In this document: in pieces, positions 12,001-36,000 of the stretch
Numbering within the stretch: position 1 is the stretch's first letter
How the letters are laid out: each line of letters begins with the position of its first letter
Assembly: GCA_023248155.1 (NCBI GenBank)
Contig: JAHFFE010000004.1
Location: 68,248-132,247, forward strand
From: Candidatus Omnitrophota bacterium
Lineage (GTDB): Bacteria > Omnitrophota > Gorgyraeia > 1-14-0-20-64-10
Direction: 5' to 3'
DNA: 64,000 nucleotides
The notes under the pieces: model-generated
The model's database searches: none
What the model was told of the DNA's origin: nothing
Seen by the model: only the letters and a program-made list of their open reading frames with translations
Made by a program: the position numbers and the translations under genes

Positions 12001-15000
12001 CTGGAAAGCGATTGAAACCGCGCGGCTCAAAGCGGCGCGCAGTGACGTGACCCAAGATGGCGTTACGGATTACCGCGATGTTGAAGCGATCCGCCACATT
12101 GACCGCGAAGAAGTCATCCGGGCCACGGCGTCTGAAATCGCGAAAGCGGACCTGAACCACAACGGCGCGCTGGACGCTGCGGATGTGGCGCAGCTTGAGC
12201 AGACCATGAAGCATATGCATGAGCTGGATCTTGATTTCGACGGCAAGATTGTTTTGGCGGACGAACTGGCGGCTTTTGACAAAGCCAAAGAATTTTACGA
12301 TCTGGGCTTGAGCCTGAGCGCCGAACAGTTTGCGCGGGCGGATATCGATCAGGACGGTTTGATCACGCCGGCGGATCTGCGCATTTATGAAAAACTGACC
12401 CAGCAGTGGGATGCTGCCGGCACGCCGCGCAATGTTTTTGATCTGACCAACGACGGCGTGGTGGATGGCAGCGATGAGCAGCGCATGGTTGATCTTTTGA
12501 TGGCCGAGGGCCTCAAAATCACTGAAGAAGAAAAAGTCCTCGGCGATATCAACCGCGACGGCATAACGGACAGCCGTGATTTGGATCTCTATACGCTGAT
12601 TTATCAAAATGAAAACCGGCTGAATATTGATGGGGTGGCGGGCATCAATGCGCAGGATGTTAATAAAGCCGCCTCGATCCGCAGCTGGCTGGCCGCGCGT
12701 AATGCGCCGGTGCGCGGGCTGACTCGGTTGAAAGATCTTCAAGATGCGGGCGTGGACACCGCCAATCCGGATGCGGTTGCCGCGCATCTCAACCAGCTGA
12801 TTTCAACCACGCAGGCCAAGATTGCCGACGTCAACGGCGATGGTCTGATCGATGAAAAAGATTTGGCCCGCGCCCGCGAAGTCGAGGAAATCGTCAGTTA
12901 CGGTATGGACCGCGGCTTTGCGCTGGACATGCGTTTCGATCTTAACCAGGACGGCAAAGTCGATGACAGTGATCTGGCGGCGCTGATGACCGCCATTTCC
13001 AACCAGATTGTGCATGATGTGAATGCGGACGGCGCGGTCAACCAGACGGATGTGGATCTTTTTGACCGCATGATCCGCTATCAACGCACGGGCTATACGG
13101 TGATGCCGGATGATCTGGAGAATGCCGACATTGACCATAGCGGCGCTTTTGATGCGGGCGATGTGACGAATTTCACAAACGCGCTGCCATTCTACCGCGA
13201 TGTGACCGGCGATAAACGCCTGGATAGTGCGGATCTGCTCGCGGTCCGTAAAGCCAAGGCCTTGCAGGAAGCCGGTTACACGGACCGCTCCTCCGGCGAG
13301 CCGGTTTACCGGCCGCTGACGCTGGATCTGCTGCGCCGTGCGGATCTGACCCGCGATAACGTGATCGACAGCGCGGATAGCGCTTTTCTGGCGCAGGCCA
13401 TTCAAGGCAATCTGGATCTGACCGGTGATTTTGCCGTGACGATCGAGGACCAGCTGCGGCTCGGCCAGTATTCGCCGTGGGGGCTGGGCGTGAAGCAAGT
13501 CGAACGTGCAGACATTGATCAGGACAATCTTATCGGCGCGCGTGATTATGCCGGCCTGCTGGCGGCGCTCGGCGGCATTGACCGCGCGGATGTCACCGGT
13601 GACGGCAAGGTCGATGCCAATGATCTCAAAGATTTACGCCGGCTGGTCGAAGCGGCCAAGCTGAAAGTGACCGGCCGCGATGTGGTGCTGGCGGATGTGA
13701 CCCGGGACCGCAAGGTCGATGTGGCGGACGTGACGAAAGTCATTGAAAGCGTACGGGCTTTGCAGGCCTTTGACATCACCGGCGACCGCATGGTCAATGC
13801 GCTGGATGAACAGGCGCTTTTCTTCCTGTGGGGCGTCGAGCCGCTGGATCTGTTAAACCAAAGCGAAGCCGCTTTGGCTGAGCTGGAAGCGCGTGCGGCC
13901 GCTGCGGTCGACGCCGGGGAAGCCCGCGCCATCGAACGCGCGGCCCAAGGTATTTTTAATCAGGCCCTGACCATGGAAGAAACCGGCAAAGCGATTGCGC
14001 GCATGCTGCTCAGCCCCAGCGAATCGCAACAGATGCTGCAGGAAATTGCGCAGATCATGGCGCGTCTTTCCGGACACCGCAGCGCCATCCAAGCCGTGCT
14101 CGCTGCGCTCACCGGACAAGCAGCGCTGGCCCCCAGCCTCGCAAGCCAGCTGGAAGATGCCCTCAAAGTCCTCAAAGAAACTTTGGTTGAAGCGCGCGCG
14201 GCTGAAAGTTCGGATGCGGTGGATTCATTGGTGCTTTCGGTCGAGCCCGTGATTCAAAATATGCGTACACTGGCCGGGACGCAGGGACAGGTCCAGCCAG
14301 GAACTCAGCCGGACCTGTCCCTGGCTGCCTATCTGGATCAGGGCGAGGCTGTTTTTGCTGAACTCTCCGCGTTGGCGCAGTCCGTGCGGCAGGCGGAAGA
14401 GACGATGGCAGGCCTTGCCGAACAAACCCGCAATGCGCTGGCGCTGGCGGATTGGATGAGCCGGCAGTTTGAAGCCGGGGCAGATACCAGCCCTGCTTTT
14501 GTGTCGCTGCTGGCTTTTGGCCGGAATGCCCTTGCCGAGTCGCAGCGTGCGGCCCAGGCTGCGCGCGCCCGGGCGTCGGGTCTTCTGGCACAGATGCCGG
14601 CGAATACCGCGGCCCTGCAGGCCCAGGAAACTTTGCGGGGCGCCCAGAGCCGTTTGGATCAAGCGCTGGAAACCCTCACGCAAAGTTTGCATGAGGCCCA
14701 GGCTGCCGAGAACGGTGCCATGCCTCTGGTGAAGGAAGCTCAGAGCAAACTCGACCACATGCGGATTTTGGCGGCGCAGTCCGTGACCACGGCCCTCGCA
14801 GGCACGGCCGCAGCGCTCGTGACCCAGCTGGCCCGGTCCAATCTCGGCCGCGAACCGACACCGGATGAAATCAGAGCCGCCGTGGCGGGCCTCGCGGCAG
14901 GAGAAACACTGGAACAGACGGCGGGCCGCTTGCTGGCAATTTCCGATGCGGCCCTGATCAAAGCCGCGCTGGATCCGCTGCGGGATAAAACCTCCCTGGA

Positions 15001-18000
15001 TGAAAGTGCTCTGGGCGCGCGCTACCAGGCCATGACCGCAGGCCTCTGGCCATTGGAAAGTGCGACTCAGTCCGTGATGAATTATTTTGGACCGGCCATG
15101 GATTGGCCGGCCGAATTGGCACGCTTGCAGCGGGGGGCCGACGAAATTCTCGCAGATTTAGAGGCGGCTCTCGCTGAAATGGACCGCTTGCTTTATTTGA
15201 ATCCCGGCCATGCGGAACTGAACGCCAATGCTCTGCTCATGACCGATGTTCTGAATCAGGCGGCCGGCCTGGCTGAAGACCTGCGGGAATTCCCGCAGGT
15301 GCTGACGCCGGAAATCGAAAATTTCAACCTTGCCAAAGCCACGGCCGAAGCCAGCCTCGCGTCTGACGAAAATCTGCAGGTCCATCTGGCCGCTGCCGAG
15401 CTTTTGACCGGACGCATCGACGCCATGACTGAAACTGCGGATAGGGCGCAAGCGCTCCGCTGGCTGGAAACTTTTGAAACCACGGCCGCCGGTCCTGTGC
15501 CTCAGCAGATCAACGCACTTGTGGCGGCCGCCAGAACCAAAGTGGAGAGCGCGCAGCAGGTGGAGGCCGGCATCCGTCTGCTTGAAGCTGCGGCCGAACA
15601 AACAGACGCAACCGCCGAATTTATCCGCGCGCAAGCCGGCACGATGAACCGTGAAATGCTGATCGGCGTCGTGGATCAGCTTCTGGGGCAGTTGGAGGCG
15701 GCCGCGGCACAGGCTTCAGGCGTGATCAGTCAGTATCCGGACACGGCGGCGTTCAGCCGTTTGAGCGGCCGTCCGGAAGCGCTGATGGCCCAGATTAAAG
15801 CCGCTCACGAAGCCATGCTGGCTGAATTATTCCATGAGCGGGTGGTCACAAATCGCGGGGCCGATTCCGTTGAAACCGCCGCGCTTTTGGCCGGTGCTGT
15901 GAACCGGTTGGGCGCAATCGCTGCGGACAATGGAGTGGCAATTCATGAATTGCCACTACGGATGCTTTATACGCTGATAAATAACACACGATCCAAAGTC
16001 GCTGTGCTGGAAAGTGAACTGGCTACGGCCGTCAATGCCGGCGTGGATGCCGGGGCTAATTTGGCCTCAATTCGCGACTACCTGGCCCGTATTGACCAAA
16101 CTGCGGCGGCCTTGAACGCCCGCGCTGCGGCTTTGGGCGCGGATGTGAATGCGCCGCTGACGGCGGCTGACAAGAATACCGCTTTAATTTCGATTCTCAG
16201 CGGACTTGAAACGCAATCCCAGGCTGCGAATGCGACGGCCTTGACCCTCAAACAAATCCAGCAGGCTGTGCGCGAGATCCAGGGACAAGTCCAGTTAGCC
16301 GCTCAAGTGCCGGGGACTCAGGGAGAGGTCCAGTTAGCGGCTCAGATGGACCTGTCCCTGCTCACGGTTAAAAATGCACTGCTGCGTGCCACCGGCGGCG
16401 CGTCTCTGGTGGAAGAAACGGTTTATCTGGCCGCGGCCGGGCGCTTGTCGCTGGTGCTTGCCAACAACACGAATGATTTGACCTTATTGAACCGGCTCGA
16501 AGTCTTTGCCGGTGATTTTGCGGTTCAAGCCGCCGCGGCCCGCGCAAAATTGGCTCAGCTTGCTGCCGCAGACAGCACGGGCGTCTATGGCTTCAGCGCC
16601 AATCTGCCTTCACTCGCCGCGCTCGAAGCCGATACCGGCAAAACCAAGGCGCTTGTGACCGAAAGACTGGCGCATTTGGCCGGACAGCCGCAGGCTTGGT
16701 CCACGGATCCGCTGGTGCGCGCGCTGCATGAAGCCGAAGCCCTGCAAAAAGCCATCATGGTCCAACAGGGACAGGTCCAAACAACTCAACAGGACCTGTC
16801 CCTTAAGACTTCGCTCGCGATCCTGGAAGCGATTGGGGAGGCCGTGACCAGCACGATCGCGGCTTTGACGGAATCCGCCCGTCAGGATGCGGCCGCTTTT
16901 GAAGACCGCCAGCGGCTGCTTGAGAATTACCGCGGTCGTTTTGATTTCTCCGAACAAGCCGCTCTGCTTCAAAGTGAAGAAACCATAGCGGCGGCGGAGC
17001 AGGCGCGTGCAGCCGAGCAAGCCGCATTCGAGCGTCACCTCGCCCTGCTGCAGGACCTTGAAACCCAGGATGAAACCCTGGCCCGGGCTTTGGCGGATAT
17101 GGCGATTGACGATGCTCAAGAATTGCGCGATTTGGGCGCTGAGCCGGATCTTGCGATCGTGGAACGCCTGGAAATGCAGGCTGAATCCGCGGAAGCGCGG
17201 CAGGATTCCGGAGCGCAGATTGAAGAACTGGCCGAGGGCCTCGCCGCCTGGATCGAACGGCTGGAGACCATGACGGCCGGTCTGAATACCAACGAGGAGT
17301 TGGCGGTGCGTGAAGGCTTGCTTGATCTGGCGGATGCCGTTACGGCGCATTGGCAGGAACTGCTGACCGAGCCGTCTGCGGCCGAGGTGCGCCAAAAAGT
17401 CGATGCGCTGCGCAGCGTTGTGACGCAAGACCTGCAGGCGCTTGAGACCACAAAAGGGGCTGCGGATGCGGCCGCCGATTGGCTGAAAGAAAACGGCGCG
17501 CATCTGACCGAACTGGACCGTCTGATTGGCGAGGCCATGGCCGCATTTGAGACTGCTGCGAAGACCACCGGTGTAGGGGCGGGTTCTAAAACCGCCCAGG
17601 ATGCCGCTGCTTCCGCGCGCCGGCTCTATGAAGAACTCGAAACGCTTCAGGATGAATTTATCGCGCTTACAGCCGAAGTCGAAAATGCCTCAGCCTATGA
17701 AGACGACATCAAGGCCATGATGACCGCGCGTGAGGAGTTCCGCGCGGAACTGGACGGCCTGGCGGAAACACAAATCCTGACGCAGATCCAAACCTCGCAG
17801 GGCGCGGATGTCACCCAACTCCTGAATACGATTGAAGCGCAGATGACGGCCAATCTCAATGCCCTGCGCAATCTGGACCCCGAAGAATTCAAAAAATCCA
17901 CGGCCGAACTTTTGGCGGGTCATCCGGAATTGGGCGGCCTCAAACTCGAACTGCCGGATGCCGGAGCCCTGGATGAAAACTCTCAGCCCGACCTCTTGCG

Positions 18001-21000
18001 GGCCTTGCTTGAGGGCGCCCGGACGCCGGCGGCCGGCGGCACGCCGCTGCGCGGTTATTATCTGGGTTATCCGGCCACAGCGACGCTGATGAACCTTGAA
18101 AATCTGATCAGCGTTCTCGCGGCCCAGCAAGGCTCCGGAACCATTTTCGCGGAAACTTGGCTGACGAGCATGCGTGAGCGCATGAACGCCTGGTTCAACC
18201 GCATGTTCGGGATGGAGGCTGAACTTGAACAGTACCGCGTCCGCATGATCGTTGACAATTCCGCTGCGGGCATCGAATGGTCACGCGTACTCGATGGAAA
18301 TATTAGCGCGGTCAATCAGCTGATCAGCGAAGCGTCAGGCGCTGCCTCAGGCGCGGATGCGGTCAATAAACTCCGCCAGGCGGAGCGTATGATCGCGCTG
18401 GTCGATGCCCAGCAGCGAGCCGTGCAGGCGCTCTGGGACGATGTGCGCGCGCGCGGTGAGATGAACAGCATCTGGTATAAGACGCGTACGATTTGGCAAA
18501 GCCTGCCGCCGCTGGATGTTTACGGGAAGTATCTGGACCAAATGGAAATCCTAAACGAGGGCGGTGAAATTTTACCGGGTGAAATCGTCGCCTATGGAAA
18601 ACATGTGAGTGATTTTGCCGCGGAACTGGCGAAAAAAGTCAAAGACCTGAATCTGGCCGCCGACTCGGCGCGCCAGGCCGCGGCCGGCAAACTGATAGGC
18701 TCGCTCAAATCGAGCCTGCAGGCGGACCAGCGCGTGATGGATAGTCTGTTGACGGAGATTCGCGGAACCTCTGATGCCTGGGTGCGCGAGGCGGCCCGGC
18801 GCGAGATCCACACCCTGCTGGAAAAGGCCGGCCAGCGCCTGGCGGATGCCAGCGTGCAGGCCGACGAGTGGCTGGATGCCACGACCTTTACAGTGTGGAC
18901 CCGGTCCATTCTGCGGGAAAACGGCATCGACCCCGATCTGCCCGAAAATCAGAAGATCTTTGAAGAGAAGAGGGCGAATGTGCGCCGGAACGAAAAACTG
19001 AAACTGGATGGCGAGCGCCGCGCGGCGGCTGCCATGTTGAACGGCTTGCGCGTGCTGGCGGAACAAGCCGGGGCCGCAGTCATGGACAGCCTGATTTTTG
19101 AAGGCGGCAGCAAACTGCTGACCGCTGAATTGAGTGAAATCAGAACACTGCTCGGCGTCTTTGCCGCGCGCAGCGAATCTGAGCGCGATGCCGTCAAGAC
19201 CGAGGCCTATCTTGAAACTGCACGCATTCTGCGTGATAAAGCGCTGGTTTTGATGAATAAGGTGCGTGAGCAAGCGGCGGCCGAGGACGCCACGCTGGAA
19301 GACCGCAATGAAGTCGCCAAAGCGGAGGCCCAATGGGATCTGATCAACACTGCCGCCGGCTATCTGGAAAATAACCGTTCAGTTCAAACAACTCAGGCGA
19401 CCGGCGGTGATTCCCTGACGAACGAGGCGCAGCGATTCTTTGAGGCCGGCAATGCTCTTTATGGGGTGCTTGATGATATGCTGGCTCGCCGGCAAGTGCA
19501 GCTGGCGGGGCCCTATGACGATCTCAGTAACGATTCCGCGTTTACCATTTTACTCGCATACGGGGATCAAATCACAGCCGACCTGACGGCCCTGCGGGAT
19601 CGTATTCAGGCCACGAGCGGTATTCTCTCAAACGCGTTTGTGAATACAAACATCTGGCTGCAGCACCTCAGCGGCATCATGGAAAATGCGCGGACCCGCG
19701 CCGCAGCGTTTTTCACCATCGGCGACCCTTCCTCGATCCGGCCCCTGGACGCCATGCGGACACTCAACAGACTGTCCGGCAGTATGACAGCGGTCATCAA
19801 GGAAAGCTTAGAATCGCACGAATTCGCTGCGTACCGGGCGGAGAACTATCGCGCGTTTGAAAGTCTGGCTCAGGGACTGCGCCGGACGCTGGATCAAAAA
19901 TACCAGCAGCTGGATACGATCTACCGGGCGGATCGCACGGCGGCAGCCCTGGCCGAACTGAAAGACGCCGCGCTGGAAGTCTTCAAACCCGCGGCCCGCT
20001 TAAATGAACTGCGCATGGCTTTCGGTGAAATGGCCGAGGTGGCGCTGGCGGATTTAACCCAGGCTAGCGTCGTCGAATTTTTACGGACAGAGATCGAACG
20101 CTCCCTGTCTGCGAATGAAGCGGCCCTTATCACGCGCGCGGCCGAAGAAGTCCAGCAAGGGTTGATCCGCGCCGCGTCCGTCTCGGCCGTGGGCATCGCG
20201 CGAAACCATACGAAGTACGAAGTGGTCTTTAATAATACGACACAGCGGCGCGAACGGACGGTGATCGATTATGCGCTCAGTGCCGGCGGTACAGCTGCCT
20301 TCCGCCAGACGCTGGCGCAGGCCTCAGATTTGCAAAAGCCACTTTCTGAAATGAACGAGCTTGCCATTCTCGAAAAAATCCGCGAAACCAACGGCGTTTT
20401 TGCCACGGACTATGTCAAACGGCAGGCGCAAATGTTTGAACGCTGGCGCCTCAAATTTATTCCGCAGGACAATGCCTTGAGCGTCACGTGGAGTATGCTG
20501 ATTTCGCGTGAACTCGAGGAAGAGTTTAACCGCTATACGAATATTCGCGATACGCTGGGCACTTCGGCCCTGGACGGCTATGCCGATGAGTTCTCTTATC
20601 ATCTCAGCATGCTCAACTGGGCGGGGAGCGTGATTGCACGGGAAGGCACGAATACGTTCAGGAACAAGAGCGTTGAAATCGACGGCACAAACTGGGCGGT
20701 GCGGGTGGATGCAGTCGATGTTCTCGCCAAAGCAGTGGATAAGGAAACTTCGCCGGAAAAACTTGAAATGCTGGTGCCGATGCTCAAGGAACAGCTGGAC
20801 GCGTTGGAAATTTTAAATGGCTCGGGGATGTCTCTTGGGAAAGACAATTACCACATCGGCGAAGCGGCGTATTTTGCCGTGCAATCCTTCAGCTCTGAAG
20901 TTAAGACCCGGGCCTATGACATTTATCTGGAGGCGCTCAAGCGCCTGGAGTTTTTCCGCATGCTGGAATTGGGCGGGGAGCAGTCCGTGGCCGATATCCG

Positions 21001-24000
21001 CGCTCAGGTCTATACCGCCGTCGAGATGCGCCGCAAGGCTCAGGCGTCCAATGATCTGGAACTGCTGATGACGCTTGCCGAGGATGCCCGCAACCGGCGC
21101 AAACAGGCGCAGAAAATTTATAAGTCTATGCTCACGCTGCTTGCAAAAGCCCTGACCGGCGACTTCAAAAATCTCGACAAGGTGCTGCCGGCGTTCAAAA
21201 AACGCGTGACGGCGGCTAAAGAGCTTTTAAACCGGCTGGCCGATGAATGGGCGCTGATTGACGCGGCGCGCATGGAATTGGCGGCCAAGGCGGACCGGGG
21301 CGCGCTCCTCGCCGGAGAAATCACCTCCCTGGCGAGTCAGGCGGCAAAATTGCGCGCTGAAATTCTGGGCCGCGAAGAGGCGGCCGGCGAACCTTCGGGC
21401 GCGGCGGCTTTAAAAGATATTCCGCTTGAGAAAATGGCCAAACTGCTCGGAATCACGGAGGAGGAAGCGGAAAAGGTCGTGGATGTGCTTTCGAATAAAA
21501 CGCTCACGCACCAGAATTCAGCCGCCGTCCTGCAGTCCATGGAGGCAGTGCGCAAAATGTTCGACAGCGGCAAACTACGCCTCGAACGTTTGACGGCGCT
21601 GATTGAAGTGCCCTATGCCGACATTGCCGGCGGAGTCCAGAAGACGGCCGCGGCGATTAACGCCATCATCGACAAGCCGGCCGCAGCCCAGGCAGCGGCG
21701 GATATTTTAGCGCAATTCGGCACGGGCATTTCCGCGGTTCCGGGAAGCGATGCGGCTATTTTAGCAGCCCTGGTGCTGGGCCTGTTGGCCGCCAGCGTGG
21801 AAGAGCCCGCAGCTTCCGCAGCTCTGAAAGCCATAATCCGCGAAGCGGCGGCCAAGGCGGCAGCGGAAGCGGAAATGCTCGGAGGCACCAGCGTCAGTCT
21901 GTCCGCGGCGGCCGCATCCGCCCAGGGTTCAGCGGCGATGGCCACGCGCATTGTGAACCAAATTCAAACCGAAAGCGGTACGGCGAGCGGCAGCGTGACA
22001 ACCGCGGCCGCGTTAGCGGTGCTGGCTGCGGCATATTCCGCTCACACGGCACAGCCGGCGTATTCCGAAACCACGGCGTCTGTGCTAGCCTCGAATATCA
22101 ATGCGTTTACGGCTTACCGGGCATACCTTGAACCGCTGCCTCTCGTGTCGCGGGCCGATGCGGCGGCGACAACAGCGCTCATTGCCGACGGACTCGCGGC
22201 CGGAAGCGACGTCAGCGCGGAGGCCGTCCGCGCGGCGGAAAAAGCTTCGGGCCTGGCGCTCATGCTGACGTCGCTGATGTCGCAGGATCGCGGTATTCCG
22301 GGTTATGCGCCTCAGGCGGCTGCGTCGTCTGCGGCCCTGTCGCTGGCGGCACTGTCCCATGCGATTGTAACATCGGGAGTCACCGGTGCGATTCGCAGTG
22401 CTGCGCTTAATGCAGCGGCCAGCGCCCGGGATTTGGCCGCGCAGGTTGCGGGAATTTCATCGCCGGCTCAGGGTGCCCAGGCGGCACGTGATGCTCAGGC
22501 CATTTCCGCAAATCTTGTCCAGATGTTTGCGGAAAATGAGTTAGCTATGCCGGCGGCCATGCAGAACTTTGTGACGGCAATTGCCGTTGCGGCAGAACTG
22601 GCCGGCGGAGCGGCCGCCGGAACGTTGAATCTGCCGGAGGCCGTCTCTATGGCCTCGGGCCTTGCGGTGACCTTTCTCCGCAATAGTCAAAGCTACCTGC
22701 TTACTGCAAGAACGCGCGAGCAGACGGCGGCGCTGACGGCTCAACTTTCAACCGCTTCATCCTGGAGCTCATCCGCACCGCAGGAAGTCGCCGGCTCGAT
22801 CCATGGATTAGGCGTATCACTTACAGCCGGACAGGCTGCTTCCGATGCGCAGGTCATGGATGCGGTGGTAGCTGCGACGGCTGCTTTTAATCTTTTTGCG
22901 AATGCGATTACGACCGATTTTAACATTCCAGAGGAGATTCGAACTGCGGCGCGGCAGAAAGCTCAGAACCTCGTTTTTTACGCGCAGCACCTGGCGCCGG
23001 CCACGACCGTGGATTGGGCGGTGGCTGAGGCGCTCACCCTGATGCAGAATGATCTTTCGGATCTGCAGGGAATGTTCCTTGCGGCTGGAATTGGGATGCC
23101 TCCGCGGGTATCGGCAGCTATGAATGCGGCGGCCGCGGCGCGGATGCTCAGCAGTTCGCTGGTTCAATCTACGCCGGTATCGATTTCGACACAGGCGTTG
23201 ACGCAGAGTTTGACGACGGCGCTGCTGATACTTCCAAGCACGGCTGCGCCCCAGCCCTTGGAGCAAGGCGCAGCTTCTCAGGGCGCGCTGGCGCTCCAAG
23301 CAGCGAGCCGTCTTGCCGTAAGTCTGACGGCCGAGGCGGATATTACCCGGCTGGGCGATACCAGCGCCTTGAATTCCTCAGCTCTTGCCGCAGGCCTTGC
23401 CGCCGCGGCGTCCGCCGGATCCGCCATGCCGCAAGGCTTGACGTCTCAGGCGGCGCAAATGGCGGCGACCGCCTTGTCCATGATTGCGGCCGCGGCCATG
23501 ATTCCGCAGTCAACGGACGATTTGAAGCAGCAGGCCGCTCTCGCCGCCGCCCAGGCCCAGACGCTCGTCGAAAGATCGGGATCCTCGGAGGCGGTCAGTG
23601 CCGCAGAAATCAAGGAAGTTTCGCTTGCGGCGGCGCAGTTAGCCGATACCGTGAAAGCCTTCATGACTTCGCTCAATCTGACGGTACCGGCCAAAATTGA
23701 CCAGATGACGAATGCGGCTCAGCAAGCGGCCGCACTGGCGGGTGCGATTGAAAAGGGCCGTTCGGGCGCTTCGATCGTCCAGGCTTTTGGAGTCAGCGGC
23801 GCGGGCGTGATTCAATATGCGCTCCACAGCCCCGAAGGCAAGGCTGTTTATGAAGCTTATCGCGATGTGCTAGGCCGTGATCCCAAGGGCGAAGAACTGG
23901 CCGTGGATTTGGCCGACGTGCTGGCCGGCAAACTGACGACCGCCGATTTGAAAGTGCGCCTGCTCGGTTCTGAAGAGTACCGCCAGACCCGTGCCTTGAT

Positions 24001-27000
24001 GGAACGCGTCATTCTGTCGGTGGGTGCGGTGCTTGAAAATTATACGGGCTTAAAACGCAGCGAACAGATCATATTCGCTGCCGGCTTTGGTATTCCCGCT
24101 TCCATGGCGGCCTCACTGAATAAAGATTCTGCCACAGCTATTCTTAAATACCTGTCGGAACAAAGCCTGCACTTCGGCATCAGCGCCTTCACGGCTCTCA
24201 GCTTCATGCTCTCTCAAGACTCACGACTCAAGACTCTCGACTACGAAGAACTCGCGCGCCAGACGATTCTCTCCGACATTCTCTCCGGCGTGCTGCGTGC
24301 CGATACGCGCGGCGAACTGGTCCTCTCGGCTTTTGCGCTTCAAAATACGGCGGCGCACGCGGGGCTCGAACTTTACGGCCGGCGCATGACGGCCGAGGAA
24401 TTGCCGGCGCTTAAATTGCCGGCCATTATTCACCTGGACGGCGATCATTTTGCCGTGCTTGAAAAGGCCGACGCTGAAAACGTGACCGTGCGTGAATATA
24501 CGGGCGATTCTTTTGCGCTGAGCGTGGCGGAATTTGTGAAACATTGGGACGGCTTCGTGATGAGCGCCGATCAACCGGACCGCCGCACGCTTGACAGCGC
24601 GAGCCTGCAGCTCATCCGCGGTTCGGATGCGGCGCTGGGATCAAGCCCTGCCGATATTGCGGCATTGTCCGTCCAGCTTGGCAATTTGTTTGCCGCCATG
24701 GCTTCCGGTTCCGTGGATGCGACGCTGGCTCAGGCCGCCTTGGCCGCGGCAGGGGATTTGGTTTCCGTGCTGGCCATTTTTGAAGAATTAAGCGCCAAGG
24801 GCGCTTATCTCAAGAGTGCCGAAAATCTGGAAGAGCGCCTGCGCCAGCAGTCGCTGGCCTTCTTTGAGGAAATCGACCGGCTGGACCTGACCGTGCGCCG
24901 CGCTTCGCGTGTGTCGCAAGGCAAAGCTTTTATGGATCAGATCACCGCGCGCAACAAGGACATCCAGAATTTGCTCATTATTGCCCAGTCTACGGCTATG
25001 CAGTATCCTTCGAACTCGGCGATTGCCGCGGATCTTGCCGAAGTACAGACCATCGCGGCCCAGGCGGCGAACAAAGCCGCGCAGACCGCGATTTATCTGA
25101 ATGAATTGACGGCCGCCGAAGCCAATGCGGCCTCGCTGGCGTCCGCCATGCGCCAGGATCTTGCGCTCATGCAATCCCTGAACCTGCGCGCGCTGGCCAG
25201 CCGCAGCAGCGCGGAAGTGGCGTCGATTTTCTCGCAGGCGGATGAGATGGAAGACCAGATGCGCTTGCTGCGTGAAGACATCAACGACGTCTACGATGCC
25301 TTTCTCAGCAGTCAAGCCATTCTGGACCGTGCCACGGAAGCCAACGAACTGCTGCTGGAAGCGGCGCGCATCCTGGCCGAGTTGACCGTGCGCGCGCGTG
25401 CCGTGGCCCGTTATAACCAGATGAGCCCGCTGCTGTTGGACCGCGCGGATGTCAACCGCGACGGCAGCGTGACTGCCGCTGACGTGACAGCGCTCAATCT
25501 GGCCATGGCCACGGTGGATGACATCAATCTCGACGGCGTGGTCGACCTGCTCGATAAGGCCATCTGGCAGCAGCTCCTGCCGCTGATTCCGACGCTGGAT
25601 TTCCTGAATGGAACCTTAGCCGGGCTGGGCGATGTGGATGCGGACAGCCAGCTTGACAGCGACGACGTCTCCTTGTTCCGTTCGTACTTGTCGGCTTACG
25701 TCAACGTGGATCAAGACCCAGCCGGGCTGGTGGATTCGAGCGATGTCCTGGCCGTGAGCAATTATGTGAATTCAGGCTACACCTTCAAATACGGCACGCC
25801 GGACACCGTGACGCTGTACCGCTACTTCGGTGAAACCCAGCCCAAAGTCGTGCACGTGGCCGATCCGAACCAGACCATCTATGTCAATTCGATCTTTGAT
25901 GTACTCGATTCCACGAGCAATGAGACATTGGATGCCCTGACGGATGTGGAGTTTCCTGAGAATCAGGGCTTTTATGCCGGCCAGATGCAGGGAATTGAGC
26001 GCTCAGCACTGGCTTCCGATGATGAAAGCGCCGTGGCGCTCTTGGCCAGCCGCGCCCGCGACTTACTGGATCAGGCGCTCTTGGGCCGCGATCTTTTGAC
26101 CCTCATCAATACGCCCGCCAGCCGTCAAGTGGCACAGACTGCGGATGGAACGCTTGAAACTTTGGCTGATCTTTACACGGCCCTGCAGGATTGGACCAAG
26201 TTTGCCGCTCAAAAAGAAGACGTCGTGCGTTTGGATCGCGAAGCGCTCGTCAGTGCGGAAGCGGCGTTGGCCCAAGCGCGTGCCGCATTGGCCGGGCTTG
26301 TCGCTCAAGTCAATGCCGGCACGCTTTCATCGGCGGATCCTGCCTTCGCCGCGGCGCTGGCCAATGTCAGTGCCAGGGAAAGCGCATACACAGCGGCAAA
26401 AAACACCTTGAGCGCATCGGCGCAGGACTCCGGCCGCGTGCGGCGCGAGAAAATCCTGCTGGACTATCTCTACAAGTCGGCCAAGAACGATTTGGAATCC
26501 CTGCGGCGCTCGTACGAAAAAATTCGCGCTCAAGCCGAGGCGTTGCGTTACAAGAGTTACGCGGCCGTTACAAGTTCGTTTGTCCGCTATCTTGGAGATG
26601 CCGCCTATGCCGCGGGGCAAAAACTTGACCCCAATAAACCGGAGGACAAACCGCTGATCCGCGCGCTTCAGGAAGTCCAGGCCTTCCAGTACCGTCTGGC
26701 GGAAACAACCGGCAATGATTTGATGGACTTGTATAACGGCCTTAGCTTTGCGCGTGACAATGGGTGGGAAACCGGTCTTCAGCCGCCGGCGGACCCGATG
26801 CCTTTGACGATGGGCGCCTGGAATGATGATACCAACCCGCTGCAATTGATTGACTTTGATCATTCCAGCGCCCGGGAATTCCGCGCGAACGTCGACCGGC
26901 TCAAAATTATTTTCGAGCATTGGGGCGAACCGCTGCCTGGAACCGGCACGGGTGGTCTTGACCTAATGCTTGATGCCAGCCAGGTTACGTTCATCGAGCA

Positions 27001-30000
27001 GTTACGGGCCAAGATGGATACCATGACGCGTCTGATGCATCAAAACTATCCGTATTGGCAGCTGAAGCTGGGCGACGTGCTCTCAGGCGTGCCGCATTTC
27101 TTTACCGAGGCGCGCATGCTGATCGAAGGCGCTAAAGTGTATTACCAGGAACTCAAGATCCGGGCCGCGCTTGTGCGAAGCGCGCATCAGGCCTATGCCT
27201 CCCGTCAAACCGAATTTAATGCGGCCGCTGCTCGCGCTCTCGGTGTGGACCTGAAGGACCTGGATACGGATGGCGATGTGGATTATGACGATTTGAATGT
27301 TCTTAAAACCCGTGTGGATACGGAAGAGCAGGAGTATACCGGCACGCTGGGCTTAATGAGTGAACTGACCGCGCCCGATGTCGGCCTCGAAGCCGTGTTG
27401 AATAAACTCGAAGGCTTCTACGGCAATATGAAACCCGTGGACCGGCTTGAAAATCTGCGCCGTGAATTCTCGGCTTTTGAAGAACGCGTGCGCATGGCCC
27501 CAACGGCTGAAGCGGCGGCGGCTGAATACGAAGCGGCTGCGCTGGTGCTGCGTGACATCACCATGCCCAATGAAGAACACTCCGTGCGTATTTCCGGTGA
27601 GCTTGACCGCGCCGCCGCGCCGGGGACTTATAATCAGGTGGCCGTGTCTTTTGCCGCACCCATGCCTGAATTCAGAGTCGGGACAACAACCTTCAAATTT
27701 CCATTCCATCTGCGTATTGGCAATGAAATCTTTGGCATGCGTGCCGGCGACCACACCGTGACGCCCGAAATCATGAACCAGGCGTTTACGTTCTATAAAC
27801 TTTATGACGTGGTCGATGTGACTCTGCCGGATGGGTCGATCATCGGTTACAACCAGCCGGTCACCACGCTGGCCGCCATGAATCCCTTTGTTTCGTATTA
27901 CGATATTCCGACGGGAGAACACCGGGTCAACGTGGGACCGATCACTTACCGGCTGGATGAAGGTTTGACCGGTCTTTGGCTGCGGCTTGAAACCGAAAAA
28001 GATCAATATGTGGAAATCGCCGAAGAACAATACAGCCTCTTCATGAGCGGCAATCCCGTTTATATGGCCGTGCGCCGTGCCTATGAAGATGCGGCGGCCG
28101 CCTACGAAAGTGCCGCCAACGCCGTCACCGCCGAAGAGGAACGTGTGGCGGATGAGGAAGAGGATCGCGCGGCAGCTATCCGCCGGAGCGTTGACGCACT
28201 GATGCAAAATCAAATCACACCGCTTGGGCTGGGGATTTTCGGCACATCCGGCAGCGTTCTTTTAGATGCGGCCGAGATCGAGCGCCGTTTGGATGAGTTC
28301 GCGAATTATGAAGCCGAGTTTGATCAATTGCAGAATGAAATCGTCCGCCTGCAAGCCATGGCTTTGGCGCCGGCCCTGACCGAGGTCAATGCCAAGGCCG
28401 CACTGGTTGCCGCCCAAGCGGCGCCGCGTAATGCTGTCAAGGCTGATCTTGAGACAGCCCACGCCCAGGCGCAATTTGCCGCGGAATTGGCCGCGGCCTT
28501 TAACGCCGCGCGCGCGGCGTTGGGAAGGGGCCAGCTTTCGTCATCCGGACTTGCTGGGCTAAGCGAGAGTGTGTTGAATGCGCGCTACAGCGGACTTTTG
28601 GCCGAGAGACTTGCTTCTGAACTGGCGCTGGCGCGCTACATGCAAATCTATGAGCGCATGAATGGTGCGGCGCGCGCGCGTCTGGATTCCATCTACGACC
28701 GCACGGCTTTGGCCGCGGATTGGCAAGCCGCATTCAGCAATTTGAACACGGCGCTGCAAACTGCGGAAGCGGCGCGGATCGCGGATGAGATTACGGCCGG
28801 AACAACGAATTTATCCGCGATTGCTGGCAATCTCAATAGCACGATTACCGCAGCGGATACGAATTTTGACAACCGTAAACTGGTGCTTGATACCGCGGCC
28901 GGAGCGGCCACGGATAACGCCACGCTCAAACCGCTGGTCGAAGGCGCGGACGGCTATATCGAAATGCGCAACAAAATCCAAGGCATGAAAGATCTTTTGG
29001 AACGCGCCCTGAATTGGTCGACGGACGCTTCTTTCGTGGCCTCCGTCACCGCCATGCTGTCGACGATCAATGCGGATGCGGGCGCCTACGACACTGCGAT
29101 CGCGATGCAAAATGTCCGCTTGGCGCATTTTGCCCTGCGTGACGGTCCGGTCACGGGCCAGCGCAACCGGGTCGTGACGCTCAAGAACCAGGCGCAGACG
29201 ATTGACACCGGCCTGCCGCCCAATCCCACGATCCAGGATGCGCGCGCGATCAATGCCGTGCTGGCACGGGTTGCGGCCGCTGCCGGACAAATCGAAAAAA
29301 TGCGCGATGAAGCGCGCGAACTTTTCCGCCGCACGGATGCGTATTATGCGGCGGTCGCGGCTTCGGGGCAGATCATTTTGGCGCCCTTGCGCGCGGATGA
29401 AATCAATGCGCTGAACGACATGAACAACCTCCTTCTCAATTTGAACACACGGCTTGCCGCGCTTGAAAATGACGCCTATCTGGTCGAACGCGACCGGTTG
29501 AACGGGATTAAGGCCGATCGCTTGACGGACAAAAACAACCGTTGGACGGACCTGACGGCAGCCGGCGGCCTGACGCCGATGAGCGGCAGCTATGAGAATT
29601 ACTACGCCAACCATGATCTGGTGCGCGCCCTGCGTGAGGAGACCGACGCAGAAGCCGTGGCCGGTGAGAAAGTTAAGGAACAACGCGACATCGTGACAGT
29701 TCAGCTTGTTGCTCGCGCCGACGCTCTGCGCGCTTCGATGCAGGCTGTTATTCAAAGCCAGCTTGAGCCGCTGCTTGCGGGCCTTCTCGATGTCAACGGC
29801 GTGCCCGTGCTTTCCGAAGCGGAGTTGACTCTGCGCATGGGGCAAGCTCGCACCAAACGCGCTGACTTTGAGGCCCTGCGCGATGAGTTGAACCGGATTA
29901 AAACCTATCTGCCTGACGATGCCCGGGAAGATTTTCAGGTTTATCTGAATGCCGCTTCGACTTTTGGCCTGCGGGTCGATGAGATTTTGACTCAGCTGGC

Positions 30001-33000
30001 GGATGCGCTCAACTATGAAGTGCATGCGGATGGTGCGCGCGCAGCGATGAGCGCCGCTGCGGCCGCTGCGGCCAGCGCTTCAGTGCGGATCGGCGGCCTG
30101 AATTTGACTGCGCTTTCGGATGCGGCTTTGGGCAATCTGCGCTCGGGGCTTTTGAGCGACCGCGCCAATCTTGAAGCCGCCCTGCTCAACTATGAGCGCC
30201 TATTCGCCACAGCCACGGGCGCCAGCCAGAACCGTCTGGCCAGCATCTATAACACCGCGTCCCTGCGGGCGGCCTTTAACAGCATGTTTAATGCACTTGA
30301 TGCCGAACTGGCACGCCGCGAACAGATTTTGATTCAAGCGGCGCTGACAAGTATGCCGCCTGCGCTCACGGCAGCCACATTGGCTGCCAATACGGCCGCC
30401 ACGATTGCCAATTGGAAAGCTGATTTTACAACTCGCCTAGGCCTGTTGGAAAGCGCCTTCCAGACGGCCTCTACGGGTGCGGCCATGAATCTAGTCATTC
30501 TGAATGCGGCGGCAGATGATTTGACGGACCTTCTGCTGGATGCCGAAGAAGCGCGCCGCGCCGTCACGCGCATGCCAGCCTGGGTGGCCGAAAGACCGCT
30601 GACGGAAACAGCGGCATTCCGCAATGAAGTCACAGCCGGTGCAGAAGAGATCGGCTTCCTGCTTCAGCGCATCACGGCCAAAATGCTGGGCATGAACAAA
30701 ATTGCCGGTTATCAGACCATGAAGGAAGGCGAACTCAGCGCGAATCTTACGGTCGTTCAGGCCGCTAAAGCCGAGGTTGATGCGCTTGAGGCGGCCTTGT
30801 TAGCAGTGCCTGCTGCGGATGCGCCCGTCACGGACCTGGATCGCGCGCGCGTGGAAGGGGAGATTGCCTTGAAGGCCATGCATCTGCAATGGTCACTGGC
30901 CGAAGAGCGCCTGCGCGCCTCGCGCGAATTGCAGCTTGGCGCCGGCGCCGCCGCCGCGGGCTATACGGCCCCGTCGGTTTCTGACCAGGATACGGCCTTG
31001 CTTGGCATCATGCAGGCTGCCGGCCGCCTGTCCACGCGCCTGGCCGACCTAGATAAACGCCGCGAACTCAAAGCGCTGGAAGAAGCCCGGCGCAAACAGT
31101 ATGAGGCTGCGCTCAAAGTCCAGGAAGCCAAAGACCGGGTCAATGGCGACTCGGTACTCTACTGGTTCCAGACGGTCCATGACATGGCCTATCAATCCCT
31201 GCAGGAAACCCGCGATCTCAAGCGTGCCTTTGAAAATGCCTTTGCCGCCATGCGCGTCTCGTTTGAAAACATGCGCGCCAAAGTGCAGGCTGAAAACGAA
31301 ATTCAGAAAAAAGCCAAAGATCTGTCCGAGGAACTCAAGGCGCATGCACAAATTGTCAACCAACTTGTCTTTGACTTGTCACTCTTGGAAAATTTCGGTG
31401 AGATCGTGACCGATCCCGACAACGCCAACTTCTCCCATGTGGATTTGGCGGATAACGCCCAAATCCTGCTGCGTCAGATCAACGAATATACGGGCGGGCT
31501 GGGCGACGGCAAGAAGGGCCTGATCGATGACTATCAAGACATCAAGGCCATGGCCGAGTCTCAGCCGGAAAATATCGAATTGCAGCGAATTTTGAAAGAC
31601 GTGGAACCGACCGCGCTTGACGCCATGGCCATTCAGCGCGTACTCAGCGACCTCTTTGGCGTGATGAGCGCCTACAGCCGTTCGGTCCAGCATCAGGAAC
31701 TAGCGCGCGCAGCCATCGAAGCCGAGAAACAGTTGATGGCGCTTTTTGAAAATGAAACCGACGACGGCGCCAAGGCGGCTTACTTTGACCTCTTCCAGCA
31801 GGCGGAAGGCAAACGCCAGGAAGCGATGAATCTGTCCATGTCAGAAGCGCGCGGCATTCTGGGGAACCTGGACCAATTGCGCGAGTACGTCGATAACTCC
31901 GACCCGTTCCTGAAAGAAAACTATCCGTCGCTTCTGACGGCCGACAAGCTGCGCATCGTCAGCCTGCTTGAAAAAATCATCGGCAGTGCAAACCTGTTGT
32001 CTCTCTCCAACGGCACGGGCGTTGAGACACCATTGGGCTCAGTCGTCGATGTGGAACACCGTCTTGATCTGGTGACGCGCCTGCGCAATAACCGGGGTTT
32101 GAGCAACGCGCCGCAGACGGAATCCGGCAGCGCGATGACGAATGTTGAAAATTTTAAATTTAATTTTAAAAATGACGTCATTCCAGCCGGATTCCCGATT
32201 CAGAACAATACTGTCTATGAATGGTTCCCGGCACCCGCAACGCCGCCGGCCGTCACGCCCAAGTGGTACGACCTTCAAGCCGGTTCAATTAATTTCTCGG
32301 CTCCGGCTTCAAATTTTGTACCTGGCCAGGCGTATGTGATTATGCGCTATGTCAAGCATCCGACCCGCTATAGACCGTGGAACGGTGTGGGTCCGGAACC
32401 GATTCATGAAGACGAGGAATTCCTCTACCGTGTCGTCACATTCTTGCGTGAGCCGTCGGACGACAAACCGGGTGAGATGGTGACGATTCTGCAGCAGCCT
32501 GAGAGAAAGCTGATTCCCGATCCCTCTAACCCAGCGGAAAAAATTGTCGGCACGAAGTGGGGGACGGTCGGTACGCCGCGCACTGACGCTATCAACAAAT
32601 ATGTGCCGGGTGTGATTCTTGAGGGTTCATCCACGACCACGCCGCCGGTCGCAGAGCCGCAATGGACCGGTAAGTCAGCGGATGTGGCCAAGGATGAAAA
32701 TAATCAATTTGTCGTGGTCGTTGACGGCAAGATTTATCGTCAATCGGCCGCTCAGGTGACGTTGATCAGCGACAACCGCTATACACCCGGCGGAGATGGC
32801 AAACTGACGCTTCAAATTTTAGTGACCGAGGGCACGGCCATTTCCTGGAAACAGCTTGTGATTATGCCCGAGGCTTTCCGTGGTGAATTTAAAGGCGACA
32901 TCAAAACCATTTTAGGAGCCAAGGACGCGCATGACCGTCTGCTCAAGGCCATGTTCGGCGCCACGGGTACGGCGGCCAATCCGGCCACGCCCGACGGCAT

Positions 33001-36000
33001 CGGCGGACTACGCGGGGATGCTTTCCGGCGCACGGGCGGCGTCGAGTTTTTTGAGACACAAAAATTTATCCTGGATACGCCGCGTGAGATTTTCAAAAAT
33101 ACAAAGCTTATTGAGAATCCGCCTAACACTACGCCCAATCTGGTCACAAGCCTGCAGCTTGCGTCCGTACCGGTGACAATCAACGGGATTAATTCAATGG
33201 TTATCCAGCCCGCGCTTACGAGCGCTCTGCATCAATTTTTCCCGGTTCCCACCGGCTATGCGGTGCGCGAAGATTTGGATATCAGTTTGTTGGACAACGG
33301 CAATTTTAAAACGACCGCGTTGTTTGACCCTGACCTCAACGATTTAGAGGTTACGGTGGAGCGTGATCCGCTCACATTAGACCCGCGGCGCGTCTCTGTT
33401 CCAGGGCTGGGAACTTTCGACGTCAAAGTGGTGCCAGGTTATGCGAATACGAACGAAATCGACAATAGCAATTTCCACCAGTTCCAGGCGATCTACGATG
33501 TCGGTACCTTGAGCGCACCCGGCGGCAGCGGCAAACTCTATCTCTACCTGCCGGTTCATGTGGGCGAAATCTTCGCCGATGTCAATGGCGACGGCTATCT
33601 GGGGCTCGAGACCGATCCGGAACTGATGGTCTGGCAGGACGGCCAGCTTGTGGACATCAAGGCCAGAGACACGGCGTCGACAACCGCCACGCCTCCCGGC
33701 TTGGGGACACCGATTTCGCAGTACAAATTTGGGATTGGGGTTGCTCCGGATAAAGTAACGCTTAGTTCTTACCTGCCGTGGATGAATGTGGCGGCGACGA
33801 CCCTAAGGTCGGTTCAGCCGGGAACTTCAGCGATGGTGACGAACTTGGTGGAAATTCAGGGGCGCTTGTTTAGCTTCTCCGACGGGACGTTGCGGAGTGA
33901 AGTGGCGCTTAACAGCACGGATACGCAGTATGTTCTGCTTATGCCAACACTTGCGGATCCCCAGCATACAGAAACGGTGGTGATTCAGCATAACGCGGTC
34001 AATACCGCAGCGGTTAATTTTGCAGCCGCGGTAACGCGCGATGGCACCGGCATTGAAGACTTTACGTACAAGGGCGTGCAGGATGCCTGGGATCCAACAT
34101 TCCTGCATCGCAAAGTGACGTCTGCCATGGCCGCGGATTATCGGTTGGCGGTGCCAGGAACGGTCACGTTTGAAGGCGACACGGTCAATTATAACGTTCT
34201 CAAGCACGTTGAAGTGACATATGAACTGGAAAATGGCGAAACATTCACGAGCCGGGGAGAAACTACCGGGTTTGTGAGTGATGCGAGCAGCAACATCCTC
34301 GTGGGAACGGCCGCGAATCCCGTGACCTATACGGCACTTTCAACCACCCAAGTCCAGCTTTGCCAGGGACCGACCGTTCCGCCGGTTTGCCAGACGTTCA
34401 ATGCGCGGGTTTTAAATCGCACCTACTTCGTCGAAAGCCAGTCCGGCCACAAGGCCGGTATGATGACGTTCGGTGCCGTGACCTTGAAAAATTTGAATAG
34501 CGATGCAGCGGTGGTTATGGGCGGCATCCTGGCCAACATGGCTAATTCCGGCGGCAATGAAATGGATCGCGAGACCGATATTGCCGAATTGATTGCGAAT
34601 TCCCAGCATGTCAGTTCCTTGCGTGCATCCATGACCCAGGCTGAAACAGAGTACCAACAGGCGGCGGACCGCTACGAAGCAGCCTTTAAAATGTGGAAAG
34701 AGTATGAACGGCAAACAGGTTTGCCCGCAGCTTGGGGCGGAATTCAACAAACCGAAGAACAGGCCCTTCTGATCGACCCTGTAACCGGGCTGCCGACGAC
34801 AGGGCTTATCCGTTTTGGCACGTACGAATATCTGCAGCAGACCAAGCGCGATTATCTGCTGGCCAAACAAGAAAAAGAATTGCTCGAGCAGGAGCAAGCT
34901 TCGCTCTTGCGCCTAATCAAGACCAAAATAGATGAGTTCAAACGCGCAGACGAGCGTTATCAAGCCATGCAAAACCTGCTCAATGAAGCCAAGGCCGTGG
35001 AACAGCTTTTGCGCTACTACATCGGCAATGACGATATGCAGTCGTCGACGTATGACCCCAATTACCTGGTGCCACCTCTGGGACCGGCCCTGCTGCCGAC
35101 ACAGGACTATGTTTCAACGGATGTGGAGTTTCAGTCTTTCATCGACGCGCGCAATTTGAATACGTTGACGGGCACGAACACGGGTCAGGAGTTTCAGGGC
35201 TGGATTGCCCAGGAAACCATCCGCGCGGCCATGAAGATCTGGCCCAAGAGCACCTGGGACACATCGGTGTTTACTCCCAATCCATTTCCCGGGGGCGGCT
35301 TAGAGGCGTATCTCATCCCGCAAATGATTCCGGATTCGCAGCAGCGTTATATGTACGGCAATTACACAACGGCTGACGATGCTGCCCATGATTTTAACAA
35401 CGCGGGCTTCTTTGCGCGCACGGGCGTCAATACGATTGATTACCACTATAGACCGGGGCTGGTGGATCTGTTGGATGAAGTGGTGGGTATGGGGCCGCTC
35501 AATCCAGTGGCTGGCACGGCCTTGCCGCCCAGCGTATCCGATGTCAATCTTAAAAAATTGGATCTTAATTTGATTCCTTATGGAGAGTTAGACATGCTCA
35601 TGTTTGACGAAAGTGTGCGCGAGCAAGTCCGGCTTGAGGGCGGCATTACCCAAAACGGAACGCGTTCCAACAATAGCTTAATCGAGGGGGTGGATGTCAC
35701 GGCGAATAGGGGCACGCAAGCGGTGCTGGAACGCGTGGTCTACGGAGGGATTGCTGATTTGAGAAGCATCTACAAAGAATACCTGGATCTGCTCGTGGCC
35801 GGCAGCCTGCGTCTGGCTTCCGATGGGCGCCAAGACAAAACCGGCCACGGCGCCAGCGCGCTGGCGCTTTTGGAAAATATGTTCCGGGTCTTTAATAACC
35901 GGACCAGTCTCGGTCAATTTCCCTCCAGCATGGCGCCGTTGGCGGTTTATCAGAACCCGCCGGCAAATTCGGAATTTTTGACAGGCGATCCCTCGGATGG

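Follow-up and report, generated by a model that had tools for sequence, protein, structure and literature searches.

A C39-fold domain within a giant reading frame

The DNA analyzed here is a stretch of 64,000 nucleotides (nt), hereafter the window, from a Candidatus Omnitrophota bacterium (GenBank assembly GCA_023248155.1, contig JAHFFE010000004.1, positions 68,248 to 132,247 of the forward strand). A frame scan shows that frame 2 contains 21,333 codons without a stop over nt 2-64000, i.e., over the entire window, and that the open reading frames (ORFs) listed in all the other frames are short. This work deals with a C39-fold peptidase domain carried by the giant frame, with its predicted catalytic residues, among which Ser is found in place of Cys, and with a double-glycine-type motif located just downstream. 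All the results are computational. The features concerned are listed below, with nt coordinates referring to the window and amino acid (aa) numbers to the frame product.

2..64000 (+): fragment of the giant host gene, a single stop-free ORF in frame 2, open at both ends
23783..24052 (+): conserved upstream element of about 90 aa (aa 7928-8017) containing YEAYRDVLGRDPKGEEL, from phmmer and the consensus of the relatives
24056..24580 (+): C39-fold peptidase domain (aa 8019-8193), from Pfam, the phmmer family, AlphaFold, Foldseek and hhalign
24182..24184 (+): Ser8061, predicted nucleophile, codon AGC, in H-F-G-I-S-A-F, aligned to the catalytic Cys of PCAT1, LahT150 and ComA
24446..24448 (+): His8149, predicted general base, in GDHFAVL, aligned to the catalytic His (hmmsearch, hhalign)
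24494..24496 (+): Glu8165, predicted third triad residue, in VREY, aligned to the catalytic Asp of PCAT1 and LahT150
24590..24625 (+): double-glycine-leader-like motif L-D-S-A-S-L-Q-L-I-R-G-S, i.e., LDSASLQLIRGS (aa 8197-8208, positions -12 to -1), followed by D, from a position-specific scoring matrix (PSSM), the family offset and AlphaFold

An initial annotation, made from the letters alone, had described a C39-like papain-fold domain at nt 24146-24580 and had recommended a search with the Peptidase_C39 profile and a superposition on ComA or HlyB. The fold is confirmed by a profile match and by structure comparison. The Pfam family PF03412 (Peptidase_C39) matches at E=1.3e-11, with 44.9 bits for a curated cut-off of 22. 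The match covers positions 45-129 of the 133 positions of the profile only, i.e., the half that bears His and Asp, the N-terminal part that bears Cys being unmatched. The AlphaFold2 model, obtained with a family alignment of 30 sequences, has a mean predicted local distance difference test (pLDDT) score of 95 and a predicted template modelling (pTM) score of 0.88. When this model is compared with the PDB by Foldseek, the 25 matches with E<=1e-3, all of probability 1.00, belong to C39 domains, to C39-like domains (CLDs) or to a related papain-like toxin. The target-normalised template modelling (TM) scores against isolated C39 domains or CLDs range from 0.67 to 0.75. The best matches are PCAT1, the CLD of HlyB, LahT150 and ComA, and 3B79 is also found among them. 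The family profile, searched against the PDB, retrieves PCAT1 at E=4e-9. NCBIfam contains no dedicated model for this domain and gives weak matches only, to C39-bearing transporters and to FapD.

The family was collected with phmmer, run exhaustively over 1.84 billion cluster representatives, the query being aa 8019-8203. At least 342 proteins passed E<=1e-3, and 99 of them had E<=1e-10. A word-indexed protein search returned nothing with the single sequence and 3 short matches with the family profile. The family counts given below rest on 163 domain copies, aligned from the best 150 of the at least 342 homologous proteins; in nearly all of these 150 the domain is internal to a very long protein (up to 7,815 aa). 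Homology within the family spans query residues 2-176, and the start of the domain is therefore placed near nt 24056, i.e., about 90 nt upstream of the start first proposed, the end at nt 24580 being retained. The residues thus added (aa 8019-8048), which the initial annotation had counted in a helical spacer, are conserved, confidently folded and belong to the domain. The N-terminal helical extension as a whole (aa 8019-8059) is a family-specific part of the domain.

Nucleophile position and attached motif

The canonical Cys motif is absent, as the initial annotation had stated, and no Cys is found anywhere in the domain. The sequence QSLHFGISAF, indeed present in its place at nt 24161-24190, had been read as a replacement of the nucleophile motif; it had been overlooked that the Ser of GISAF sits exactly at the nucleophile position. 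The reference C39 sequences of PCAT1, LahT150 and ComA were taken from PDB alignments. A sequence of CvaB was added; its match to LahT150 has E=8e-22, and the positions of Cys32 and His105 in it are those given in the literature (PMC3335142). When the family profile is aligned with these four references by hhalign (Prob 98.1%, E=6.6e-14), ISAF falls on DCGA, i.e., Ser8061 on the catalytic Cys, while His8149 falls on His and Glu8165 on Asp, the last being a conservative change. A profile restricted to the Ser-type copies gives the identical register against canonical C39. That the conserved His occupies the position of the catalytic His, as first suggested, is seen with hmmsearch as well as with hhalign.

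The structural context is in the same direction. In the numbering of the model, Ser8061, His8149, Glu8165 and Ser8208 are residues 43, 131, 147 and 190, respectively. Ser43 lies at the N-terminus of helix 42-53, His131 opens strand 131-138 and Glu147 stands just after strand 142-146. In LahT150, Cys27 is on helix alpha1, and His101 and Asp117 are on strands beta4 and beta5 (PMC6363468).

The column of Ser8061 contains Ser in 119 copies, Cys in 43 and Thr in one, and no other residue in the 163 copies; a look for Cys or Ser near the predicted active-site His in aligned homologs had been part of the checks initially proposed. His is found in 154 of the 163 copies at the column of His8149. At that of Glu8165, Asp (85 copies) and Glu (65 copies) account together for 150 of the 163. 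The Ser-type motif H(-4)-F(-3)-G(-2)-x-S-A-F is near-invariant, with H in 118, F in 117 and G in 115 of the 119 copies. In the Cys-type copies the motif is x-V-I-N-C-A, and 40 of these 43 copies have Asn at -1. The family-invariant residues D74, G78, S91, H131 and G166, together with HFGxSAF, are all intact in the copy of the window. Gln8054 is located at -7 from Ser8061, and the corresponding column of the Ser-type copies contains Gln (60) or Arg (43).

A neighbour-joining tree was built without the columns of the nucleophile motif. It places 118 Ser copies in one clade of 121, together with two Cys copies (one of them HFGECA) and the sole Thr copy. One Ser copy, in protein P0017, occurs in a Cys-type context beside a near-identical Cys copy of the same protein. 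The tree contains at least 5 changes of nucleophile state, always among Ser, Cys and Thr. The codon of Ser8061 (AGC) is one transversion away from TGC.

A further position of this motif is worth mentioning. His8057 (nt 24170-24172), at -4 from Ser8061, belongs to a column with His in 118 of the 119 Ser-type copies and mostly Asn or Tyr in the Cys-type ones; it may be a compensating change in the active site.

The 55 residues past the W-x-G that ends the domain were compared across the copies of the family. A recurrent motif, L-[STN]-x-x-[EQ]-[AM]-[QK]-x-[IV]-[RK]-G-[AGS], is found downstream of the domain in both Cys- and Ser-type copies. The pattern [LIVM]x7[LIVMFT]xG[GAS] occurs within 60 aa in 132 of 157 copies (84%) vs. 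10% of segments of equal length elsewhere in the same proteins. In most copies the G-[AGS] pair is located 25-31 residues past the glycine of W-x-G. Among the 132 copies, Leu is used at -12 in 96, Glu or Gln at -8 in 98, Ile or Val at -4 in 121, and Arg or Lys at -3 in 112; Ser, Thr or Asn are favoured at -11. Gly occupies -2 in every matched copy, and position -1 is Ala (82), Ser (42) or Gly (8). The leaders processed by C39 peptidases end with Gly-Gly, Gly-Ala or Gly-Ser, their recognition sequence is Leu(-12)-X3-Glu(-8)-Leu(-7), and positions -4, -7 and -12 contact the groove of the enzyme (PMC6363468). The preferences of the family motif agree with this leader consensus.

A PSSM trained without the copy of the window was scanned over all 21,333 residues of the frame. 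Its best match is aa 8194-8208, i.e., RRTLDSASLQLIRGS followed by DAALG, 24 residues past Gly8184, which is the offset typical of the family. The chance that the top match lands in the expected interval of 13 residues is about 6e-4. The scissile bond is predicted between Ser8208 and Asp8209, i.e., between nt 24625 and 24626. No other cleavage-type motif of the frame scores above the null, the next PSSM scores being 8.3 and 7.4; the idea that the domain would chop this stretch into many pieces was dropped for this reason. The conserved G12 of the N-terminal extension (L-G-L/I) was also considered as a second, upstream site and was rejected: it shows no double-glycine-type pattern and lies within the confidently folded domain.

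The domain was also modelled together with its tail (AlphaFold, alignment of 26 sequences). The pLDDT stays at about 94 over residues 171-180 and 181-190, then is about 50 from residue 191; confidence thus ends exactly at the predicted P1 residue (residue 190). The tail is helical from -10 to -5 and makes a beta bridge at -3/-2, which pairs with residues 90-91. Residue 91 is the family-invariant Ser, aligned to a conserved Asn or Thr of canonical C39 domains. In the complex of LahT150 with its leader, P1-P3 are linear and positions -4 to -11 are helical (PMC6363468). As modelled, the docking of the tail would have the same geometry.

With respect to the first interpretation of the domain, the suggested link with double-glycine leaders or autoprocessing is retained in the form of the attached motif. 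The assignment to the non-catalytic, HlyB-type CLDs is not, since the nucleophile column contains Ser, Cys or Thr only, His and the acid are conserved, HFGxSAF is near-invariant and a double-glycine-type motif follows. The same features, i.e., a column restricted to these three residues, conserved His and acid, and the motif, lead to the conclusion that the site looks maintained; the alternative of a degenerate site, also put forward at first, is thus not retained.

Relatives and host protein

The upstream element travels with the domain: the proteins in which phmmer matches it belong to the same family, where it stands immediately ahead of the C39-like domain, and the consensus of 12 long relatives reads YYRxVLGRDP at this place. 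The YRDVLGRDP element has a likeness to DUF4214, but this assignment was abandoned, as Pfam detects no family there.

The closest relative, P0001, is a partial protein from a metagenome-assembled genome of Candidatus Omnitrophica. It shows the same order as the window, i.e., upstream element, C39-like domain and, about 400 aa downstream, a dockerin. P0001 is 48% identical, and over the domain the identity of the window copy with P0001 and P0002 is 45-47%. The other named relatives belong to Candidatus Omnitrophota, to Gorgyraea or to a bacterium of the PVC group. A scan of genome contigs with the domain gave only an unrelated C39 locus of Aestuariivita, at 27% identity.

The 12 long relatives of Ser type (2,800-4,900 aa) contain RHS repeats in 7 cases, as well as LamG/ConA-like, ILEI and Ig-like domains; their most conserved part is the C39-like region. 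In the RHS/LamG relatives (P0008-P0060 and L002; 2,000-5,000 aa), the sequence right after G-[AGS] is strongly hydrophobic and rich in Gly (FFPLIF... or GWWxxFWKGIV...). For instance, the relative L002, found among metagenome contigs (34% identity; 1180-1380), has an HFGESAF motif and then a QKIRGA/FF site, the slash marking the predicted cut. Judging from its composition, this stretch suggests a membrane anchor or a bacteriocin-like, membrane-active tail; cleavage at the motif would then mean shedding or activation of these proteins. In the window protein, P0001 and P0002, a soluble-looking sequence beginning with Asp follows the motif.

Another arrangement is seen in the Gorgyraea-type proteins (P0003-P0007, P0010, P0025), each of which carries two or three copies of Cys type. 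The double-glycine-type motif is found after the first copy; the later copies end with R-x-P-P and Pro-rich linkers and are devoid of the motif. Such motif-less copies may act in trans or have another role.

The host is a fragment (at least 21,333 aa) of a Cys-poor giant protein of the «dockerin-type» class of Omnitrophota. Its sequence contains 26 Cys for 21,333 residues and is rich in Ala and Leu, the coding DNA having 56% G+C. Pfam yields little in this frame: several Dockerin_1 modules, EF-hand, one ILEI and one Peptidase_C39. The modules outside the C39-fold domain are the following.

1799-2038 (+): ILEI domain PF15711 (aa 600-679), Pfam E=1.3e-7
8384-8572, 12821-13183 and 25421-25495 (+): dockerin type I modules with EF-hand calcium-binding loops, Pfam

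The strongest set of dockerins spans aa 4274-4394; about 265 aa past the predicted cleavage site, a weak one is found. ILEI is also present in 2 of the 12 long RHS/LamG relatives that bear the Ser-type C39 module. The Pfam results over the entire 21,333-aa frame include no ATP-binding cassette (ABC) transporter domain. TSP3 repeats were not detected in the giant frame, and a BLAST self-comparison of this frame revealed no internal sequence repeats. Further copies of the C39-like domain were searched across the window and none was found, i.e., the domain is present once. No gene follows the domain on its 3' side within the window, where the same frame runs on for more than 13,000 aa.

Two other observations concern the window. 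At least 5 strongly hydrophobic segments are clustered at aa 18402-18945 (nt 55205-56836), with Kyte-Doolittle means over 19 residues of up to 2.46. This cluster resembles a multi-pass membrane region located within the giant protein; no family is reported there by Pfam. An antisense ORF of 117 aa (24221-24574, minus strand) lies beneath the C39-like domain and is one of many short off-frame ORFs. It is most likely a by-product of the G+C-rich coding sequence and was disregarded because the sense frame is open over 64 kb.

Predicted cleavage and known systems

The favoured reading of these data, for which the chances appear evenly balanced, is that a Ser-His-Glu variant of C39 would cleave in cis and split an Omnitrophota dockerin-type giant protein; it draws on the fold, the alignment register, the conservation, the attached motif and the docked tail. 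It also draws on the co-occurrence of triad and motif, the motif being present in 136 of 148 copies with an intact triad vs. 4 of 12 with a broken one (Fisher P=5e-6), and on the precedent of StbD, a C39 that auto-processes in cis (bioRxiv 10.64898/2026.05.07.723447). The fold, the equivalent residues, their conservation, the motif and the docking are established by computation; that the Ser is competent for catalysis, that the chain is cut and that the cut is made in cis are inferred. The module would be the self-processing unit of a giant secreted or surface protein, in which the nucleophilic Cys would have been exchanged for Ser to give the triad Ser8061-His8149-Glu8165. The downstream segment L8197...I8205-R-G8207-S8208 would fold back and place its short helix in the leader-binding groove, so that the G-S/D bond would be presented to the active site. 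Cleavage in cis after Ser8208 would cut the giant protein once. The products would be an N-terminal part of at least 8,208 aa ending with the peptidase and a C-terminal part of at least 13,125 aa starting with DAALGSS... A Ser nucleophile would presumably suit an oxidising extracellular location. The wider proposal is a naturally Ser-based C39 clade of clan CA, with a working Ser-His-Glu/Asp triad and its own double-glycine substrate, which would serve as a maturation or shedding switch of the Omnitrophota giant and of large RHS/LamG surface proteins. Its probability is put a little short of even.

Several points weigh against the favoured reading. Its motif is a weak version, with Ser instead of Glu or Gln at -8; the PSSM score is 13.1 vs. 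a family median of 26.7, and since the shuffled null reaches 14.2 the score alone is not significant. The association of the motif with the triad is inflated, and partly confounded, by truncated copies of the domain. The Gln that canonical C39 domains have at -6, in the oxyanion hole, is not conserved in the family. Engineered replacement of Cys by Ser in papain-like enzymes usually reduces activity strongly and has left a «non-negligible» activity for two enzymes only; the activity of the natural Ser-bearing papain-like families in the same review is unproven (PMC10318531). Finally, the docked tail of the model would be equally compatible with a latch that does not cleave.

Such a latch is the main alternative. 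The groove would clamp its own double-glycine-like tail, or that of a partner, without hydrolysis, and the domain would be a structural joint or a folding aid comparable to the CLD of HlyB. The absence of the canonical Cys, the N-terminal third unmatched by Pfam, the rank of the HlyB CLD and 3B79 among the best structural matches, the poor performance of Ser as a stand-in for Cys in papain-like enzymes (PMC10318531) and the fact that a docked tail does not by itself imply cleavage all speak for it. However, in the known CLDs the position of Cys is occupied by Tyr (HlyB, PaxB), Leu (LktB) or Asn (RtxB), and no double-glycine motif is present in the substrates of these domains (PMC8277102). In the present family only Ser, Cys and Thr occur there, with at least 5 interchanges, and His and Asp/Glu are kept in about 92-94% of the copies. 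Moreover, small P2 and P1 residues (Gly at -2; Ala, Ser or Gly at -1) are required by a narrow protease subsite and are needless for a clamp. A non-catalytic latch is thus regarded as unlikely, although with a real share of the probability.

An improbable alternative is a peptidase that acts in trans on other giant or large surface proteins, or on small leader peptides, with a double-glycine motif, its own motif being an autoinhibitory pseudo-substrate or incidental. West-Roberts et al. proposed that C39 domains may cut the giant proteins or cleave other substrates (bioRxiv 10.1101/2023.11.21.568195), and the extra Cys-type copies of several relatives, followed by Pro-rich linkers, have no downstream motif. 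Against this, the 21,333 aa contain no other strong motif (the next scores are within the null), the fixed offset of the motif in 84% of the copies points to an intramolecular relation, and the precedent of StbD is in cis (bioRxiv 10.64898/2026.05.07.723447). Very improbable is a decayed relic, i.e., an inactive remnant of a Cys-type domain drifting in a long and weakly constrained protein. The window copy does belong to the weakest-scoring class of motifs, and its two closest relatives have G-T and L-G-A variants, which fail the strict motif pattern; decay is contradicted by the intact family-invariant residues, and the identity with P0001 and P0002 over the domain and the pLDDT of the model are also against it.

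The favoured reading, i.e., cleavage in cis by a Ser-type C39, bears on an explicitly open question: whether giant bacterial proteins of tens of thousands of residues are one chain or are cut into pieces. The module provides a concrete prediction, with one peptidase, one triad and one scissile bond. As the motif recurs in most relatives, the same prediction is testable on tractable proteins of 2,000-5,000 aa. If true, (i) Ser8208-Asp8209 would be the first cleavage site predicted to the exact residue in a giant bacterial protein; (ii) the family would offer a clean natural exchange of Cys and Ser nucleophiles on the papain fold, both states, as well as intermediates, being found among its members. 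This bears on the evolutionary switching of catalytic nucleophiles and on whether extracellular, Cys-poor proteins favour Ser. A small, sequence-specific self-cleaving tag independent of a redox-sensitive thiol could also serve as a tool.

The comparison with known systems begins with the C39 domains of PCAT/AMS transporters (ComA, LahT, PCAT1, CvaB; PF03412, MEROPS C39). The fold is common, and His and the acid are equivalent. Their substrates and the one predicted here are alike, i.e., an amphipathic helix with hydrophobic residues at -12, -7 and -4 and G-[GAS] at -2/-1. In the present domain, however, the nucleophile is Ser and not Cys, the third residue is Glu and the oxyanion Gln at -6 is not conserved; a helical N-terminal extension of about 40 aa and an insertion of 12 aa are additional. 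The domain is internal to a giant protein instead of being fused to an ABC transporter, and its motif is C-terminal to the peptidase on the same chain, whereas theirs is N-terminal on a separate peptide.

The CLDs of RTX exporters (HlyB, 3ZUA; 3B79) also have a C39 fold without the catalytic Cys. They are fused to the ABC transporters of type I secretion systems, whereas here no ABC domain is found, the nucleophile position is Ser, Cys or Thr only and a double-glycine-type motif is attached.

StbD-CT of Citrobacter rodentium is a C39 that auto-processes in cis after Gly157-Gly158, the processing being abolished by C183A or by mutation of the glycines (bioRxiv 10.64898/2026.05.07.723447). The likeness is that of a C39 in a very large secreted protein with its own chain cut at a di-glycine in an adjacent linker, the cut being a prediction in the present case. 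StbD differs by its redox-gated Cys183, by a di-glycine N-terminal to the domain and by a C-terminal toxin that has an immunity protein and targets GyrB and ParE. Relative to toxins of the Tox-PL-C39/StbD type, the domain of the window is internal and has a Ser as predicted nucleophile.

Papain-fold families with a natural Ser for Cys have been described as rare: menin, DUF2145, DUF2272, DUF3750 and APC5867 (PMC10318531). They share with the present family a conserved replacement beside a retained His and acid. No C39 family is among those listed (PMC10318531). An attached candidate substrate, which makes activity directly testable, is lacking in all of them. Neither a Ser-type C39 nor a built-in site was encountered in our literature searches.

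The Omnitrophota giants of the «dockerin-type» class have been reported to contain dockerin, EF-hand, ILEI and, in one case, C39-like domains, and their proteolytic processing has been proposed; the cleavage points were stated to be unknown, and neither «catalytic» nor «cysteine» appears anywhere in that text (bioRxiv 10.1101/2023.11.21.568195). A 2026 preprint contains a 24-protein PF03412 architecture cluster, and the text around its passages on C39, peptidase, dockerin and protease makes no mention of catalytic residues or cleavage points (10.64898/2026.06.07.730766). C39 having already been reported in these giants, its presence in the window is therefore known biology. The lineage and the class of protein are the same, and Dockerin_1, EF-hand, ILEI and C39 are all found in the window. 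What is added here to the published Omnitrophota giants is the Ser clade, its motif and the predicted built-in cleavage site; the clade and the attached site are new as far as literature searches show.

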